Shown one piece after another: positions 910 to 8,346 of a stretch of DNA of 64,000 nucleotides (position 1 is the first letter of the stretch; every line of letters begins with the position of its first letter). The notes below the pieces were generated by a model. The model was not told where the DNA came from. It did not search any database and worked only from the letters and a program-made list of their open reading frames with translations. The translations under genes were made by a program, and so were the position numbers. The stretch is taken from assembly GCA_963667175.2 (NCBI GenBank), contig CAXXXF010000006.1, forward strand, positions 320,001 through 384,000, given 5' to 3'. This DNA is from Candidatus Latescibacterota bacterium. GTDB lineage: Bacteria > Latescibacterota > UBA2968 > GCA-2709665.

Positions 910-927
910 GTTTTTTTTATCCTCATT

Positions 928-2737
928 GAGTCCCCTCCGAAAACGGTGTCACAAGAGTCTGGTGTAAGTGGTCAGCGTTGGAGCTTGTGATTTAGTGTGT
1001 GGCGCCGAGATAAGGTGTAGGTGCGGCGTACCCACTCAGGGGCGACCTTCGAAGGTGCTGTGGGTCTGTGGTAAGGGGGTTTTGGGCAAGAAAGCCCCTC
1101 TTATGCGGGGAGCATCGAGGGTGTTGTGAGGTAGTTCTGGATGCGAACGAGGTTGACCCAAAGGCTACGACAGCGCGCCCACAATTGGTGTGGCCTTTCT
1201 CCGCGATAGCGCGTCTTGCCATCTTTGGTGTAGTAGCTCAACTGAAAGATGCTGGCTTCGACGTTATTGCGTCGTTTTCTGATGTAGTCAGGCAGGGCTT
1301 CAATCTGTTTGCGTTTGAGGTAAGTGTCGATGTGATGTTCCTGAAAGTATCGGGCTTTGCCATCGATGATGATTTTGTATTTTCCCGGTTTGTATTCCTG
1401 GGCGATGTGAACCTCTCCGGTTTGTTGATCGGTGACGGCGACGCCTTTTGCTGTGCGTTCATAACGGAAACGCCCTGGCTTTCCTTGCAGGCCACTGTAA
1501 AAGAATCGCTTGTCGTTTTCGTCGGCATACTCGGTGTTGGATTGATCATTATAGGCCCCATCCATTGACACTTCCGCGACGTCATTCACCACCTGTAGCG
1601 TCCGCTGTATGGCATCTTGGACAAACGCGTTGTCGGGATGCGTCGCGGGTTTGACGTCAACGTCCGTGATCAAATTGAGGCCCTCTTCATCGCAGGTCTC
1701 GGTGAGGTTGACACTATATCCTTTCACCTTGTCCTTCCCTTTCTTGCGAAAGGCCGCCTCTTCATCATGGGCAGACTGCAACGAGGATGAGGTGATCTCC
1801 TTGGGAGGCTTGGGCAGCACCTCCTCGGGGGAAGATGAAACCGTATAGTGGTCGCCAAAAACACGCACGATCAGATCGTATTGGTCGCTGTCTTTCTCGG
1901 TATAGGTCTCTTGTAGCCTGCTCAACAACAGCCCCAATTCCCGCAGCTTCTCGCCTTTTTCAGTCGGAGTGAGACGGTAGACAACCTGATGAGGCTTCGC
2001 CTGAATCAGAGCCTCCAAAATCTGCTGATCCGTTGCCGATGATCGTTGTTTTTGGTCCTGGTCCAAGGACCTCCAGAACCCTTGTACGCAACCCACCACC
2101 AACTGCAACCGACAACACAAGGCAATGTTCGAGCCGATCAACTTACTGTCCATTCGTATCTGCTGACCCAACACACCAAAGGCGTTGGCCTGCGTCTTCG
2201 TTAAGCTGGCAAAGGCCTCGCCGATCAGATCGCGACCCGTTTTTAGTTGATACGCATACAACGCCTGCTTGAACAGATAATACGTGGACTCGACAGGCAC
2301 TTCATCCGTAAGATTCATCAACCCCAATGCCCCCATCACCAACACGTTGAATCGACATTGATCGAAAAGGTCGGCATCGCTCCACCCAAAACCCTCCTTG
2401 ACGATCATCATCGACACCAACTGACGAATCGGCGCATTGGGACGACCTACGTCAGCGGCAAACATCACACGGAATAGATCCTCATCCACCTTTGACGTGA
2501 TGTGCTCGTAAAACAGATTATGCCAGCACAACGGATCATTGAGCCGGTTCAGCTTACGACCTTCGAAATGAGACTCAAAACTGCGAAACAGATCCGGCGG
2601 ACTTGAAGGGGCACTCCTTCTAAACATATCGCCCTCGCCTTCTTTTCGATTCTACGTCAGGGACTCTGAAACCTGTCGATACCTCCAATTTAGTACTTTT
2701 TCGCCAATAAGTAAACTCGACTTTTCGGAGTGGACTC
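928..2737 (-). mobile_element. Insertion sequence, IS1182/IS5-like (DUF772 + DDE), 1810 bp
   Basis: Terminal IRs GAGTCCCCTCCGAAAA (928-943) and rc GAGTCCACTCCGAAAA (2722-2737), 15/16 identical. 6-bp target duplication CTCATT at 922-927 and 2738-2743. Single transposase inside. Confidence 0.93.
1101..2627 (-). CDS. DDE transposase (DUF772 N-terminal domain)
   Basis: GRPNAPIRQLVSMMIVKEGFGWSD N-terminal motif. Catalytic-looking RMDSK, SMDGAY and RNNVEASI. Lies between the IS IRs. Confidence 0.93.
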   Translation of the reverse strand: MFRRSAPSSPPDLFRSFESHFEGRKLNRLNDPLCWHNLFYEHITSKVDEDLFRVMFAADVGRPNAPIRQLVSMMIVKEGFGWSDADLFDQCRFNVLVMGALGLMNLTDEVPVESTYYLFKQALYAYQLKTGRDLIGEAFASLTKTQANAFGVLGQQIRMDSKLIGSNIALCCRLQLVVGCVQGFWRSLDQDQKQRSSATDQQILEALIQAKPHQVVYRLTPTEKGEKLRELGLLLSRLQETYTEKDSDQYDLIVRVFGDHYTVSSSPEEVLPKPPKEITSSSLQSAHDEEAAFRKKGKDKVKGYSVNLTETCDEEGLNLITDVDVKPATHPDNAFVQDAIQRTLQVVNDVAEVSMDGAYNDQSNTEYADENDKRFFYSGLQGKPGRFRYERTAKGVAVTDQQTGEVHIAQEYKPGKYKIIIDGKARYFQEHHIDTYLKRKQIEALPDYIRKRRNNVEASIFQLSYYTKDGKTRYRGERPHQLWARCRSLWVNLVRIQNYLTTPSMLPA

Positions 2738-2784
2738 CTCATTTATTGCATAACCTGAATAATTCGCCCTAAAGCATGAATTTA

Positions 2785-2809
2785 CATGGATGGACAGGAT
2801 GAGCAGGAT
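2785..2809 (+). repeat. 9-nt-periodic triple repeat CATGGATGGACAGGATGAGCAGGAT (vacant copy)
   Basis: Identical 25-mer at 4931-4955; degenerate copy at about 690-715. Confidence 0.85.
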
Positions 2810-2876
2810 AAAGACCAAAAGGCGCGAGAACGGCACGAGAAAACGAGAAATACCGAAAAGCACGACAAATCGTACA

Positions 2877-2913
2877 TCAGAAACTACGAAACACGCGAAA
2901 AATCACGAAAAAT
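2877..2913 (+). repeat. Left arm of a 26-36 bp inverted repeat (TCAGAAACTACGAAACACGCGAAAAA...)
   Basis: 2877-2902 is the exact reverse complement of 5854-5879; the match extends further with one indel. Confidence 0.85.
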
Positions 2914-2951
2914 CCGCGGTTGAACCCCTTTCATTCAAAACACAAAACTCA

Positions 2952-4930
2952 GTAGAGTCGAGATGTGGCGCGGTGGTTTAGGAGTGGCCTATCTGTTTCC
3001 GCCCCTTTCGTCTGGCGGTGCCTCAATAGCCGCTCCGTGCTCCGTTTCCACGTCCCGCTCATCGAACCGGACGTGCGGATTTACCGCATCCGGCTCTCGG
3101 ACAAGGAGTCATGCGTTCGCCCACGGAAGGTTGCGCGCCTGTACTTCCAGCCGGGTCAGGCCCAACGTGTTGTAGAGGACCTGGTCATGGAAGCGTGACC
3201 TTCCCTTTCCCGGTATTCGGTACTTGTTGCACAACCACCAGCGGAGCCGTTTCCGGGTGTGGCTGTCCACACTCCGATAGGCTTTGCTGGCCAGACCAAG
3301 ACGGAAGTAGTTGCCCCACCCTGCCAGCTTTCGGTTCAGGTGGGCAATCCGTTCTTGATGGTCTTTCAGCAACCACCGTCGCGCCGTTGCCTCGCTGATG
3401 GCCCGGCAGATGTGCCGGATGGCCTTCTTTGACGGGCGCGTGCCGATATAGGCCTTTCCCGTCTTTGGCGAGTAACAGCGGCCGATGGTGTAGCCCAGAA
3501 AGTCAAATCGTCCTTCCGGGAGCGTGCATATGCCCGTCTTCTGCTCGTTCACCGTCAACTTAAGCGCTTTCATGATGGATCGCATCGCACGCATCGCTTC
3601 TTCTGCACTGCCGCGACAGCAGATCACAAAATCATCCGCGTAGTTGACAATATGAGCCTCCAGACGTTGCTGATGTCCCCGAAATTTCCATCCCAGAATG
3701 AACCGCCGCATATACAGGTTCGCCAACAGCGGGGAGATTGGGGCGCCTTGCGGTGTCCCCCTTCCCTGATCCTTGTTCGGCGTCGCTCGACGTTTGCGGC
3801 CCCGCTTGTCGGTCTCCTCAATCGGCGCGGTCAGCCACAGCTTGATCAGGCGCAGCATTCGCCCGTCACTGATGCGTCGCGCCACCGATTTCATCAACTC
3901 GGCATGCGGGATCGTGTCGAAGTAGCCGCTCAAGTCGGCGTCGATCACCTGCGTATGGCCGCGGCTCACCAGACTGTGAACCGCATTGATGGCGTCGTGC
4001 GCACTCCGTTTCGGGCGATACGCATACTGTTCCGCTGGCAGGTCCGCCTCAAAGATCGGCTCCAAGACCAGCATCGCCGCGGTTTGCACCACCCGATCCT
4101 TCACCGTCGGGATGCCCAACGGCCTTTGCTTCCCGTTCGGCTTGGGGATATATACCCGACGGATCGGAGACACCCGATACGATTTGCTCCTTACGGCTTC
4201 CGACAGTTCGCCTAACCACCGCTTTTGCCCGTATGACTCGATATCCGCAAACGTCTCGCCGTCCACGCCCGCCGCGCCGCCGTTGGCCTTGCAGCAGCGG
4301 TACGCATAAAGCAGGATGTCCTCGCGATACACTTTGTCATACAGCGCGTAGAATCGGTAGCCGGGCGATTCCTTCGCTTTGGCATGCAACGTCTTCCGCA
4401 ACTTCCGAACCTTCTCCGGAGGTCTTAGGCTCATACCAATCTCCAGGCTCTCGCTCCTTTGACGTTGCCCTTGAACCAAGGCCCCTTCCCTCCACCGGCA
4501 TTACCCGGCTTCCCGGGTACTACGGGCCTCTCCGCCACCCCACACGGCCCGGCCTGACCCTCACGGGCGTCCGGTTGGTGTCTATACACCACCGAGGGGG
4601 GCTTCCCGTGTTGCGTCGGAACTCCTTGTATACGTGCCTTCGCCATTACCCCGGCGGGACCGTTGGATGCGCGCGTTGCTCTCTTTTTCCAACGACGGCG
4701 GCCTTCCCCGATCCATGGGCGGGTCGGCTCCCGCATTACCTTTTTCGAGGCCTGCTCAGCGTTCACTCACGTTTCGGCCCGCATACTCGCCAGGTCGCCT
4801 TGCGACCCTCTACACCGGAGGCTTCGGAGATGTCGTTGCCTACGTCCCCGCTCCGGTTGCTACCGACCGCAGCAACATTTGTCGGGTGGGACTCTCACCC
4901 ACTGAAGTTCCGCGCCTTTTCACGGCGCAC
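2952..4930 (-). mobile_element. Group II intron, 1979 nt, IIB-like (class E/F-type RT without endonuclease)
   Basis: 5' end GTGCGCCGTG at 4930. Domain V GAGAGCCGGATGCGGTAAATCCGCACGTCCGGTTC at about 3064-3098. Domain VI ends CTCGACTCTAC at 2952. EBS1 CATGGAT (4717-4711) is complementary to the 5'-exon end ATCCATG. Confidence 0.93.
3109..4434 (-). CDS. ltrA: Group II intron reverse transcriptase/maturase
   Basis: RT motifs GAAGVDG, RPLGIP, DADLSGYFDTIPH, GTPQGAPISPLLANLY, YADD, FDFLG, then the X domain GWGNYF. No HNH domain. Likely start ATG 4434 (MSLRPPEK) behind GGAG. Confidence 0.96.
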   Translation of the reverse strand: MSLRPPEKVRKLRKTLHAKAKESPGYRFYALYDKVYREDILLYAYRCCKANGGAAGVDGETFADIESYGQKRWLGELSEAVRSKSYRVSPIRRVYIPKPNGKQRPLGIPTVKDRVVQTAAMLVLEPIFEADLPAEQYAYRPKRSAHDAINAVHSLVSRGHTQVIDADLSGYFDTIPHAELMKSVARRISDGRMLRLIKLWLTAPIEETDKRGRKRRATPNKDQGRGTPQGAPISPLLANLYMRRFILGWKFRGHQQRLEAHIVNYADDFVICCRGSAEEAMRAMRSIMKALKLTVNEQKTGICTLPEGRFDFLGYTIGRCYSPKTGKAYIGTRPSKKAIRHICRAISEATARRWLLKDHQERIAHLNRKLAGWGNYFRLGLASKAYRSVDSHTRKRLRWWLCNKYRIPGKGRSRFHDQVLYNTLGLTRLEVQARNLPWANA

Positions 4931-4955
4931 CATGGATGGACAGGATGAGCAGGAT
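4931..4955 (+). repeat. 9-nt-periodic triple repeat; forms the 5' exon (IBS1) of the group II intron
   Basis: Identical to 2785-2809 and directly abuts the intron 5' end. Confidence 0.85.
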
Positions 4956-5188
4956 CATAACATGATGCAGGAAAAAGCCTGGAGCGGGATAAATGCTCAC
5001 AATTCCGGGCCAAAGCGATGGATCCTTAACCCCTTTAGTTCGCCTGGCGCGGCTCTGCTATGCCCAGCCGCAACCAAATATCACGGGGAGCACGGTATTG
5101 TTTACATCCTCCCACTCTTCTGTGGTGGGGCCTGAATGTCGACTATTTGCTGCTTCTGAAAATAAATGGAAGCTGACAACTGTTCTTC

Positions 5189-5212
5189 CTGACCACTGGC
5201 CACTGGCCACTA
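5189..5212 (+). repeat. Short heptamer tandem repeat (CTGRCCA)x3
   Basis: CTGACCA CTGGCCA CTGGCCA CTA. Confidence 0.55.
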
Positions 5213-5323
5213 TTTACTGCTCCTGGTAATGACATTTCCCTTGACACGTTGGACATTGCACGCTTCCTTTACATAAATGGATCAATGTTAAAGTAAAGCC
5301 GAAATTCAACCGGAAAGTGCGCA

Positions 5324-5593
5324 ATGTTACGGAAAATTCTCAGGAATGATTACTTCCAGATGCTCACCTTTCTGGTGGCCCTCGCTGGTACAGTCTGGGG
5401 CGCTGTATGGACGCTTAACACGAGACTCGAAGACAGGCTGACTCAACTAATAAACAATCTCGAAAGCAGAGTTACACAACGGATAGACAGACTCGAAGAC
5501 AATATGAATAATCGCTTCGGGGAAATCGAAAAACGCCTGGATTCCTTCGGCGAGCGTATTGCCAGAAACGAAGCCAGATTAGACGCACAGTAA
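5324..5593 (+). CDS. Small membrane-anchored coiled-coil protein (89 aa)
   Basis: One hydrophobic helix (MLTFLVALAGTVWGAVW) then heptad-like repeats (RLEDRL, RIDRLED, RIARNEARLD). Confidence 0.75.
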   Translation: MLRKILRNDYFQMLTFLVALAGTVWGAVWTLNTRLEDRLTQLINNLESRVTQRIDRLEDNMNNRFGEIEKRLDSFGERIARNEARLDAQ

Positions 5594-5608
5594 ACGCCTA
5601 CCGAATGC

Positions 5609-5698
5609 CAGTCCGTTGATAGAGTCCATCCGGGCTGCCTGCCTTGCCGGCAGACAGGCGTCCGATCCTTGTGACTAGATGGCGCCGTTGCGCTTCCC
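5609..5698 (+). repeat. MITE/REP-like dispersed repeat, copy 1, with palindromic insert at 5637-5659
   Basis: CAGTCCGTTGATAGAGTCCATCC...GCGTCCGATCCTTGTGAC...CGTTGCGCT aligns with 12084-12170. Confidence 0.65.
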
Positions 5699-5842
5699 CC
5701 CTGCATTTCAACCAACGCAGCCACGACGTTTCGATCCCTCGCCCTTGCCCGACTTCAAAACGGGAGGGACGCCAGTAATCAACGCGCTGGCGACCTCTTT
5801 CCAATTCACGTACCCCCTTGCGGCAATTGACTTCTGCCACGT

Positions 5843-5879
5843 ATTTTTTCGTGTTTTTCGCGTGTTTCGTAGTTTCTGA
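5843..5879 (-). repeat. Right arm of the inverted repeat matching 2877-2913
   Basis: TTTTTCGCGTGTTTCGTAGTTTCTGA is the reverse complement of 2877-2902. Confidence 0.85.
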
Positions 5880-5900
5880 CGTTATCTTCCAGTTCGCTTC

Positions 5901-8306
5901 CTACTTCTCCAGTATCTGAAACCGCCCCTCGCGAACCGTCTGCTGACCGCTCACCAGGTCCTTTACCGTCATTTTCACCCGGTAGCGCCCGGGCTTGCCC
6001 TTTCGCAGGTCCAATTCGACGTAATCGGATTCGTCAGGCGAAGTACCCGCCTGCTGATAGCTTACCGTAACCATTTCACCCGATCCCTTACGGGCCAGCG
6101 TTTTCAGTTTCTTACGCCCGCGGCGCACCTCGTACCCCACTTCGTACCGGGTGTTGCCGAAGGAATCCCTCGCCAGGTTGTAAATCTCGAAATACACGTA
6201 AACCGGATCGCCGGCGCGAAACGCCCTGGACGGCGCCGCGGCAATCTGCCAGTTCCCCCGGACCGATTTCGGGTCTGCGTCCGGGCGCGCCTCGACGACG
6301 CGGTACGCCACCTGGAGATCGCTCAGGAGCAGCCGCCCGCTATCGTAGTCGGGCACCTCGACCTCCTGGTGATACGCCTGCAGCCGGTTCGTATTCAGCC
6401 TGGACATCTGCAATGCAAGCCGATAGGCGCCCGGCGGCGCGGTCAGGTCGACCCGGTCGACGGCCAGAAGCCCCTTACCCTTTGCCGAAGGCGATAATCG
6501 CACCTCCAGCCGGTCCCGCGTTGTCCGCGCCTGCTCCGTCCGGTTTTCGATCAGGGCGATGCGCCGGTCGAGCGTGACCGTGGTGTCAGTGTCTCCCTTC
6601 ACCAGGACGTTGTCCAGCGGCAGTCCCAGATTCAGCTGAAGATCCGCCTCTCCGTTGCGGCCCCGGAACGTCAGGGCTTCGTAGTAGAACTCCATGGGAT
6701 CCAGGTGAGAAAGATCGTACCGCTCCGGCAGATCCTTCGAGATTCGCGCCACCCGGGCGCCCGGCGCCAGGTTGGGCAACCGCGTCATCAGGCGGCGCAT
6801 GGGGCCCTGGCGCTGCATGGAGAGTTCGTCCAGATCGTACCCGTCCGGGGTAGGCTCCGGAGCGAAATCGTAGATGCCGCTGTATAATTCGTCCGTAAAT
6901 ACCACTTCGAGGCCATTCCCGACGTCGGTATAGATCCAGACTTCCCATCCCACTTTCGAGTAATCCATCGCCGTGGTCACCGGCTTGTAATACGTGAGCC
7001 CCACGTCGATTTCTTCCGGGCCCGGCACGGGCTGATGGCTGGTCCGCCAGTCGGTGTTGGAAAGCGTCCGTTCTGCCGATCGGTCCGACCGGATGGGGTA
7101 CACCGGACCTATGAAGTTCATGTTGTGCCCGCGTTTTCCGTACAGCTGAAACGCCAGCTTTTCCTGCACGCGCTGCACCTTGAGCGGCACCTGCGCGTTG
7201 ATCTTCCTCCAGTTCGACTTCCAGTCGGGCTTGCCGTACCTGACGAACACCCGGCCCCTGGCGTCGAAGGGCCACTTGATTTCACCGTAAAGGGTCATCG
7301 CCCGCCAGACGCGGCGGTAGTGCTCCACGCGCCGCATCGCGCCGCCGGACGTCTGGAACGGGTCGCGCGTCAGCCAGAACCGCCGCAGGAAGGCTTCCCT
7401 CTCTTCAGGCGGTGTATTCCGGAAGGCCTGGACGTCGTCCGGCCCGGCCACGATGGAAACGTCGTGAAAGACCGACCGCGTCTTTGCCGGTTGAAGTAAG
7501 ATATACTGCTCAAACGCCGCAAGGGCCTCTTCGTGATCGCCCCAGGCGGCCAGGACCTGCGATTCGAGGGGCAGCCCCCGCCGCGGACCCATCAGCGCCG
7601 CCAGCTGCATCACCTCGTCGTACCGGCCGATTTCCAGAAGGTACAGCGCAAAGTCAAACGCGGATTCCTCGTCGTCCGGGTCGCGAGCGAGGAACTCCTG
7701 AAAATACTTGATCGCCTCGCGCGAATTTCCCTGCGATAGATGGTAATCGGCAAGCAGCATGTAGGAAGGCGCATGGTCCGGGTCGTATCGGAGCGCTTCC
7801 CGGGCCGCGGCCAGGACCTCTTTCTTCTTTCGCAATTTCAGATATGCCCGTCCCATCAGGTGATGGGCGTCGACGTAGGCGGAGTCGGCGCCGATGGCGC
7901 GTTCCAGGTTACTCAGCGCACGTTTTGGGTTGTTCATCAACTCGAGATAAACGCGACCCAGCCCGTATCGCGCCGCCACCAGCGTGGAATCCTCAATGAG
8001 CGCGTCGCGAAAACGCGCCCTCGCCCGCTGTGCGTCCCTTGCCTTGAGATAGAGCATGCCCAGGCGCACGCGCAGCAGGGCGGGGCTGGGGTACGCTTTC
8101 AGGGCGCCCTCCAGCTGACCGATCGCCACCCTGATGGAGTCCGGGTGCTCGGACTTCATCGCGCGGACGTAGACCGCGTTCACCTCGGCGGGCGAAAGCG
8201 CGTCCGCCCGCGCCGATGCGGCGCCCCAACCGAAGATGCAGAGGACCAGAACCGAAAGAAACGCCTGCCGGCGCCGGTACCCGCGGTCGTCTACCAAGTA
8301 ATGCAT
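5901..8306 (-). CDS. Secreted TPR + GWxTD-domain protein
   Basis: Signal peptide (..ASARA), multiple TPR helices, then FLRRFWLTRDP...EHYRRV...WPFDARGRVFVRYGKPD and a C-terminal Ig-like region (YVYFEIYNL). GGAGG 9 nt before ATG 8306; the ORF track starts at GTG 8312. Confidence 0.85.
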   Translation of the reverse strand: MHYLVDDRGYRRRQAFLSVLVLCIFGWGAASARADALSPAEVNAVYVRAMKSEHPDSIRVAIGQLEGALKAYPSPALLRVRLGMLYLKARDAQRARARFRDALIEDSTLVAARYGLGRVYLELMNNPKRALSNLERAIGADSAYVDAHHLMGRAYLKLRKKKEVLAAAREALRYDPDHAPSYMLLADYHLSQGNSREAIKYFQEFLARDPDDEESAFDFALYLLEIGRYDEVMQLAALMGPRRGLPLESQVLAAWGDHEEALAAFEQYILLQPAKTRSVFHDVSIVAGPDDVQAFRNTPPEEREAFLRRFWLTRDPFQTSGGAMRRVEHYRRVWRAMTLYGEIKWPFDARGRVFVRYGKPDWKSNWRKINAQVPLKVQRVQEKLAFQLYGKRGHNMNFIGPVYPIRSDRSAERTLSNTDWRTSHQPVPGPEEIDVGLTYYKPVTTAMDYSKVGWEVWIYTDVGNGLEVVFTDELYSGIYDFAPEPTPDGYDLDELSMQRQGPMRRLMTRLPNLAPGARVARISKDLPERYDLSHLDPMEFYYEALTFRGRNGEADLQLNLGLPLDNVLVKGDTDTTVTLDRRIALIENRTEQARTTRDRLEVRLSPSAKGKGLLAVDRVDLTAPPGAYRLALQMSRLNTNRLQAYHQEVEVPDYDSGRLLLSDLQVAYRVVEARPDADPKSVRGNWQIAAAPSRAFRAGDPVYVYFEIYNLARDSFGNTRYEVGYEVRRGRKKLKTLARKGSGEMVTVSYQQAGTSPDESDYVELDLRKGKPGRYRVKMTVKDLVSGQQTVREGRFQILEK

Positions 8307-8346
8307 CTTCACAATCCTCCCGCGCCAATTTGATACATCAGATATG

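Follow-up and report, generated by a model that had tools for sequence, protein, structure and literature searches.

The window, that is, the whole 64,000-nt stretch of DNA analysed here (G000:C6:320001-384000), comes from an uncultured sponge-associated bacterium (Candidatus Latescibacterota) and carries on its minus strand a complete group II intron of 1979 nt (4930-2952) lodged in a dispersed repeat, hereafter repeat A. The intron opens with GTGCG at 4930 and closes with ...CTAC at 2952. Its 5′ exon is the end of a repeat-A copy, a 25-mer (4955-4931, minus strand) made of two 9-nt units followed by ATCCATG, and its 3′ exon is the downstream part of the occupied repeat-A unit (2951-2915, minus strand), with the T at 2951 as intron-binding site 3 (IBS3). 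An earlier note on this DNA had likewise placed the end of the repeat immediately before GTGCG. A second, vacant repeat-A unit follows in tandem (2914-2760, minus strand); its 25-mer at 2809-2785 is identical, uninterrupted and on the same strand, and is followed by a T at 2784, giving a potential insertion point at 2785/2784. The earlier note had drawn attention to this vacant neighbour, which lies 143 bases from the intron 3′ end rather than the 167 it reported.

The core of domain I (4904-4767, minus strand) was recognized by Rfam RF02003 (group-II-D1D4-4) at 102 bits (gathering score 49), and domains V/VI (3098-2952) matched RF00029 with 41.6 bits, above the gathering score. Domain V (3096-3064, minus strand) shows the AGC triad, a 2-nt bulge and, from its fold, a 5-nt terminal loop (UAAAU), the terminal region being one base short of the tetraloop region of the Rfam consensus. 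The extended domain VI (3060-2952, minus strand) has a minimum free energy (MFE) of -62.2 kcal/mol (z -4.38), and its predicted fold bulges the branch-point A at 2958, 7 nt from the intron 3′ end. The element thus displays the 5′ GUGYG, the domain V triad and bulge, the bulged A of domain VI and the 3′ AY of group II introns; the MFE fold of domains I-III was uninformative. Domain IV holds a reverse transcriptase (RT) and maturase open reading frame (ORF), outside of which the ribozyme measures 653 nt. The intron-encoded protein (IEP) of 441 aa (4434-3109, minus strand) likely starts at the ATG at 4434, in a frame open from a TTG at 4479, and consists of RVT_1 (2.7e-36) and GIIM (3e-13) only, with a YADD motif; as the earlier note had proposed, the domain search found no endonuclease (D/En, HNH) domain, and only 32 residues extend beyond GIIM. 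Judged by these features, the intron is apparently functional and mobile.

Exon-binding sites and their covariation

Exon-binding site 1 (EBS1, CATGGAT; intron 214-220, window 4717-4711, minus strand) occupies a 9-nt hairpin loop whose closing 4-bp stem (208-211/221-224) shows compensatory changes, and pairs at 7/7 positions with the seven exon bases that precede the intron (IBS1, ATCCATG at 4937-4931). EBS3 (A285, window 4646, minus strand) pairs with the T at +1. EBS2 (AAGGT; intron 189-193, window 4742-4738, minus strand) is a single-stranded segment showing family-level covariation with exon positions -14 to -10.

Covariation was assessed in relatives of the IEP, 441 of which were confirmed in a scan of our genome collection; the best 80 of these 441 loci were kept, and 64 of them allowed the intron ends to be located. 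The set compared comprised 76 non-redundant intron/site pairs out of 84, from several phyla, a pair being dropped if the last 16 exon bases, intron 151-260 and the +1 base were all the same, and each exon position was compared, without bias, with each intron column. Exon positions -1 to -5 paired with intron 214-218 in 72-74 of the 76 pairs, with all four Watson-Crick types represented at each position, and position -6 with intron 219 in 62; position -7, which paired with intron 220 in 51, was not singled out by the scan. The EBS1-IBS1 pairing is far beyond chance, which bears out the earlier suggestion that CATGGAT, the perfect 7-nt complement of ATCCATG, acts as EBS1. The +1 base paired with intron 285 in 72/76 (A:T 28, T:A 19, G:C 16, G:T 4, C:G 3, T:G 2), and this EBS3 stands apart from EBS1, unlike the delta base that lies beside EBS1 in IIA introns. 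Pairing of exon positions -13, -12 and -10 with intron 190-192 was weaker and variable in register; family-wide, the EBS2 segment (189-193) yielded mutual information of 0.4-0.55 and was paired in 76-79% of cases, with clear examples in four homologs (L016, L027, L043 and L052). The window copy itself forms only 3 bp, AGG with CCT at -14 to -12 (4944-4942), a weak IBS2; the earlier note's remark that no convincing EBS2 could be seen therefore describes this copy fairly but not the lineage, in which EBS2 covaries. Given that the lineage possesses EBS1, a separate EBS3 and, judging by family-level covariation, EBS2, exon recognition appears to be of the IIB type.

Eight homologs from several phyla (L015, L016, L019, L021, L022, L026, L055, L089) share a common site of about 16 nt, TA[AG]CC[CT]GGA[TC]TATTCA, in places that are otherwise unrelated. 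A TA directly upstream of IBS2 is common across the family. In RmInt1, an intron to which we return below, T-15 is a protein contact, and by analogy this TA may be a candidate protein contact as well.

Three intron subfamilies with three recurrent targets

A blastn search of the whole genome (5.52 Mb, 18 contigs) with the intron returned 26 complete copies and two 5′ fragments, representing 14 distinct sequences. The complete copies sort into three subfamilies, distinguished by their EBS1, EBS2 and EBS3, each fitting its own recurrent target. Subfamily A, to which the window copy belongs, comprises four full-length introns with the same ends (three identical, one at 99%) and eight ORF-less ones (758 or 762 nt), with CATGGAT, AAGGT and A as EBS1, EBS2 and EBS3, a 5′ exon ending in TCCATG and a T at +1 in 11 of the 12 copies. 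The six introns of subfamily B are all full-length (1976 nt) and 94.5% identical to A; they carry TGAATTT, AGGGT and G, follow a 5′ exon ending in ATTCA (5/6) or TCTCA (the sixth), and have C or T at +1. Subfamily C consists of eight ORF-less introns (seven of 761 nt, one of 1059 nt) with TGTCAGC, ACGTT and T, a 5′ exon ending in GCTGACA (GCTGATA in one) and A at +1. The 441-aa ORF is intact, YADD included, in 10/10 full-length copies, and sets of identical sequences occur: the three full-length A introns, five of the 758-nt form and three each of the 761-nt and 762-nt forms. The ORF-less A and C copies share a domain IV filler of about 155 nt unlike the corresponding part of the ORF-containing form, indicating that they constitute one non-autonomous lineage. 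The 1059-nt C-type intron (G000:C13:175517-174459) has a domain IV enlarged by an additional insert of about 298 nt. The two truncated 5′ fragments, of 272 and 62 nt (G000:C4:271815 and G000:C3:12656), sit at sites that fit none of the subfamily targets.

The repeat-A motif, ATCCTGNNNATCCATG, is present in 48 copies. A-type introns, and no others, occupy nine of these and the remaining 39 are vacant, an occupancy of about one site in five; conversely, nine of the 12 copies with a CATGGAT EBS1 lie in the motif. This count of occupied and vacant copies, which the earlier note had called for, sustains its idea of a IIB-like intron set against a multi-copy intergenic repeat. Alignment of all 48 motif copies delimits a conserved unit of about 100-130 nt, found in 50-75 copies by blastn. 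Crude longest-ORF gene calls class 30 of the 39 vacant copies as intergenic, and these are not oriented in any consistent way relative to the genes beside them. Repeat A is often adjoined by a second module, about 130 nt long and present in 15-22 copies, which has the B-type target at its far end, where four of the six B introns sit. The C-type target is a third repeat; eight of its copies are occupied, one of these having an upstream flank that differs in part, and seven are vacant. One of the vacant copies lies in the window (5121-5215, plus strand; IBS1 GCTGACA at 5172-5178, insertion point after 5178), about 220 bases away from the intron-bearing copy of repeat A and in the opposite orientation.

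The repeat modules appear, from their sequence, to be non-coding: none matched Pfam or NCBIfam, and none matched Rfam at E values up to 1. A repeat that is a gene was rejected on the distribution of substitutions over codon positions (64/75/52), which shows no third-position excess, and on indels that are mostly not multiples of 3, and a known RNA on the absence of any Rfam match. One composite repeat (L111 185-482, on G000:C3) contains, counting both strands, three overlapping open frames of more than 90 aa with starts such as MDGQDGQD and MDRMDRM; small proteins called in it are probably spurious products of gene callers.

Possible sequence determinants of the restriction to repeat A

ATCCATG occurs at 687 sites outside introns. 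Nine of 48 are occupied in the strict repeat-A motif as compared to one of 639 elsewhere (Fisher p = 1.8e-10), and the disparity persists when only intergenic sites are counted (9/39 in the repeat versus 1/132 elsewhere, p = 6e-6). The 11 bases specified by the intron, CCT at -14 to -12, RTCCATG and T at +1, are found together at 54 genomic sites; the repeat accounts for 48 of these, and none of the other six is occupied. Since the full 11-base match is nearly exclusive to the repeat, the pairing rules alone can explain the restriction. The earlier note had supposed that repeat structure or protein context might be needed beyond a short EBS1, which the data do not require. The target strand folds with an MFE of only -2.8 kcal/mol, and 180 of 200 shuffled sequences fold at least as well. 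A structural, hairpin-type target of the kind used by group IIC introns was rejected, the canonical repeat unit having no stable DNA fold. The paired positions are alike in vacant and occupied repeat copies, so that the vacant neighbour at 2809-2785 looks like a site not yet used.

The pairing recurs in a relative. In genome G001, also of the Latescibacterota, seven of 31 motif copies are occupied; CATGGAT is present in seven of the ten loci examined there and all seven of these introns sit in the motif, a check on homologs that the earlier note had called for. Two further relatives, G002 and G003, hold 11 and 35 motif copies (0 in a backwards control), with no CATGGAT intron among their examined loci, one full-length G002 match lying outside the examined set. 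Among the best 80 loci, the closest relatives of the IEP (82-91% identity) belong to three metagenome-assembled genomes titled Candidatus Latescibacterota, and the next (60-69%) to Planctomycetota, Acidobacteriota, Gemmatimonadota and others. Seven 756-nt ORF-less introns of G002 (L091, L094, L097, L100, L102, L105, L108) carry the EBS1 TTGCGAA and share a site of about 17 nt and an identical 12-nt 3′ exon within flanks that are otherwise unrelated, suggestive of another repeat-like target.

Proposed homing by base pairing and alternative explanations

The interpretation we favor, with good confidence, is that the element is an apparently functional, mobile group II intron, recognizing its exons in IIB fashion and having a class E/F-like RNA, that homed to repeat A by base pairing. 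In the proposed mechanism (retrohoming), the excised intron RNA would have reverse-spliced into DNA recognized by pairing of EBS1 (CAUGGAU) with the last 7 nt before the insertion point in the non-coding repeat, of EBS3 (A285) with the T after that point, and of EBS2 through three additional base pairs with CCT at -14 to -12. These 11 bases being nearly peculiar to the repeat, the intron would in practice be confined to it, and the identical neighbouring copy would be a site not yet used. The family would have proliferated and split into three subfamilies by co-ordinated changes in EBS1, EBS2 and EBS3, each homing to its own sequence, with the ORF-less derivatives presumably mobilized in trans. 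The sequences directly show the anatomy, the pairings and their covariation, the distribution of copies and the independence of the repeat from the intron; beyond this we infer that the intron may be currently active, that its cDNA would be primed without an endonuclease, and that the repeat may have been adopted as a harmless landing site, a 'safe harbour' conferring a selective benefit.

Enrichment in the repeat could conceivably reflect survivorship, the intron inserting at any (A/G)TCCATG and copies persisting only where they do no harm. Three ectopic copies do exist, and 482 of the 594 other vacant ATCCATG sites are coding by the crude gene calls. Selection of this sort would nevertheless have to account for the 9/39 versus 1/132 occupancy among intergenic sites, and for the fact that the bases common to all repeat copies (CCT at -14 to -12 and T at +1) are precisely the pairing partners of EBS2 and EBS3, two sites that covary throughout the family; we regard it as improbable. 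Still harder to sustain, and in our view very improbable indeed, is the spread of repeat and intron as one block, the EBS1 complementarity being inherited with it. Repeat A is dispersed, and its absence from the orthologous intergenic region of two relatives implies that it moves or is moved, but 39 of the 48 motif copies lack the intron, the repeat is present without this intron type in two relatives, and the repeat copies that host the three identical full-length A introns diverge from one another in their flanks, within 45 nt on the upstream side and 30 nt on the downstream side. Identical introns in diverged repeat copies point to independent insertions.

Alternatively, the family might be an immobile relic in which the pattern records past homing only and the vacant neighbour will stay vacant, an explanation we hold to be quite improbable. 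The window stretch is represented in sponge metagenome runs, four of which (X1, X2, X16, X17) were available as contigs rather than raw reads, so that absences in them mean little. Contigs of the two DNA runs cover the intron and part of its flanks and exhibit no filled/empty polymorphism, as expected of a relic. Against it stand the sets of identical copies, the ORF that is intact with YADD in every full-length copy and, more weakly, the intron sequence found in contigs of the two metatranscriptome runs, which cover the intron only. One metatranscriptome contig (X17; depth 11.9, shorter side 54 nt) joins 4930 to 2952, that is, the intron 3′ end to its 5′ end, a joint that neither DNA run contains. 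Such a junction would arise from a full-length intron circle or from a head-to-tail arrangement and could be either; as a single contig retrieved at a 90% likeness threshold, it is a hint only.

Several observations weigh against homing by base pairing as set out above. Specificity is not absolute: the earlier note had named copies at unrelated ATCCATG sites outside the repeat as refuting its proposal, and in part such copies exist, nine of the 12 A-type copies lying within the repeat and the other three elsewhere, two at GTCCATG and one at ATCCATG. These ectopic copies, two of which retain CC at -14/-13, look like exceptions to the rule and fit rare retrotransposition. Full-match sites outside the repeat number only six, making any contribution of the repeat beyond the 11 bases indistinguishable from that of the bases themselves; the EBS2 pairing of the window copy is short and shifted in register by one relative to most homologs; and the intergenic labels are crude. 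No contig in the four runs joins 2951 to 4931, as an empty site or spliced exons would, and the two RNA runs contained no ligated-exon RNA, flank depth being zero there. Endonuclease-less introns are expected to prime at replication forks. Intron orientation was not significantly biased relative to GC skew (16/26 copies on the G-rich strand, using 80-kb windows on unordered contigs), and replication-fork priming thus finds no support here; a replication-strand bias was dropped accordingly, though the full-length A copies are 4/4 on the G-rich strand.

Possible exchange of the targeting segment

In a whole-intron tree, the A and B introns of this genome are sisters. Identity along the intron is mosaic: in intron 151-300 (window 4780-4631), which holds EBS2, EBS1 and EBS3, A introns of this genome and of G001 are 98.7% identical as compared to 88.7% between A and B within the genome, whereas at the start of the ORF (intron 453-900, window 4478-4031) the corresponding values are 90.2% and 97.8%. 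This sequence pattern suggests exchange of the targeting segment by recombination. More tentatively, and with less than even confidence, the segment of about 150 nt with all three EBSs might be an exchangeable targeting cassette in sponge-associated Latescibacterota; the 98.7% identity between the CATGGAT introns of the two species compares with 82-89% for flanking host genes, and an ORF-less lineage that looks unrelated has the same cassette.

Classification and comparison with known group II introns

We describe the intron as E/F-like, without claiming membership in class E or F, because it combines a 5-nt domain V loop, a 653-nt ribozyme and the lack of an endonuclease. The best plasmid match to the IEP, from a Planctomyces plasmid, is 62% identical and all others are at most 44%, while its best relatives of solved structure are IIC RTs (GsI-IIC, 1e-53); neither comparison settles the class. 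To our knowledge, no protein of classes D, E or F has been solved in the PDB. Classes E and F are characterized by a domain V loop of 5 nt and a size of 450-700 nt (Nagy et al. 2013, PMC3753933), and their alpha′ lies at the end of a stem-loop in DId3 (PMC3753933). In our intron, a 6-bp stem with covariation (237-242/265-270) encloses a loop containing a candidate alpha′ at 251-256, whose pairing with 55-60 is only partly supported, the alignment being poor in that loop. A first alpha-alpha′ candidate was rejected when it turned out to be a local helix.

With the class E/F (IIE/IIF) introns Cl.be.I2, Pe.th.I2 and Ge.ur.I1, the present lineage has in common a small IIB-like ribozyme, the 5-nt domain V loop and the lack of an endonuclease (PMC3753933; Toro and Martinez-Abarca 2013, PMC3552965), as well as an EBS2 whose covariation is seen across the family although individual sites may pair with it weakly or do without it (PMC3753933, PMC3552965). 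The hosts of close homologs (Acidobacteriota, Planctomycetota, delta-proteobacteria) also overlap those of basal class F introns (PMC3753933, PMC3552965). Homing to dispersed repeats, in contrast, is not described in the available portions of PMC3753933 or PMC3552965.

The lack of an endonuclease domain and the use of recurrent non-coding motifs as landing sites are also reminiscent of group IIC. IIC introns target intrinsic terminators and attC sites, where they read a DNA hairpin. The present lineage departs from them in its 7-nt EBS1, its family-wide EBS2 and a target without a stable fold, and does not qualify as IIC, a group reported to lack EBS2 and part of EBS1 (PMC3753933).

The nearest parallel in proliferation is offered by TeI3/TeI4 of Thermosynechococcus elongatus, likewise a single lineage with more than 25 copies and families differing in EBS (Mohr, Ghanem and Lambowitz 2010, PMC2882425). 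EBS divergence is described there as a means of avoiding target saturation, with a preference for multi-copy DNA, the targets being other introns, an IS200-family element and intergenic sites (PMC2882425). The targets in our genome are instead short non-coding dispersed repeats, addressed by an endonuclease-less intron with a class E/F-like RNA, and a second species shows the same pairing between intron and repeat.

The second parallel is RmInt1. Its natural homing site is the insertion sequence ISRm2011-2, as opposed to the non-IS repeat occupied here, and the 5-nt domain V loop of our intron points to class E/F and not D. RmInt1 itself is a class D (IIB3) intron of Sinorhizobium meliloti (Toro laboratory; PMC4075523, PMC4615759, PMC4181065) and resembles the present one in having an RT/maturase without endonuclease, recognition through EBS1, EBS2 and EBS3, a high copy number, target specificity that diverges among relatives and homing outside functional genes.

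The element is accordingly not of a new kind. There are precedents for EBS/IBS-guided mobility, target divergence, ORF-less riders and multi-copy DNA as a homing target, and the mechanisms match those of Thermosynechococcus and RmInt1; what is new is the kind of target and the lineage. Our literature search, confined to one library of papers and directed at group II introns in connection with dispersed, intergenic or extragenic repeats, miniature inverted-repeat transposable elements or Latescibacter, found no paper that describes homing of this kind. The three sister subfamilies within one genome, with their countable occupied and vacant targets, amount to a natural experiment in how a group II intron acquires new targets and indicate that about 11 paired bases can suffice to confine it to a non-coding repeat family. 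They extend proliferation strategies of the Thermosynechococcus type to a compact lineage without endonuclease, so far little studied, from a candidate phylum, and the sister copies re-aimed at other repeats illustrate a way for elements of this sort to multiply while sparing genes. For builders of gene-targeting vectors, too, compact lineages whose pairing rules are clear may be of interest.

Genomic context of the intron

The intron-bearing, repeat-rich gap is bounded on one side by a transposase-like gene (DUF772; 1101-2627, minus strand) and on the other by a gene for a TPR protein (5901-8312, minus strand). The former was considered as a repeated insertion sequence and rejected, as it is single-copy with one relative at 74.5% identity. 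A block of about 5 kb (approximately 920-5900) comprising the transposase-like gene, two repeat-A units, the intron and the repeat-C unit is missing from the orthologous site in G001 and G002, where the flanking genes, 82-89% identical to those of the window, are only about 160-180 nt apart; this near adjacency indicates that the block is specific to the present genome.

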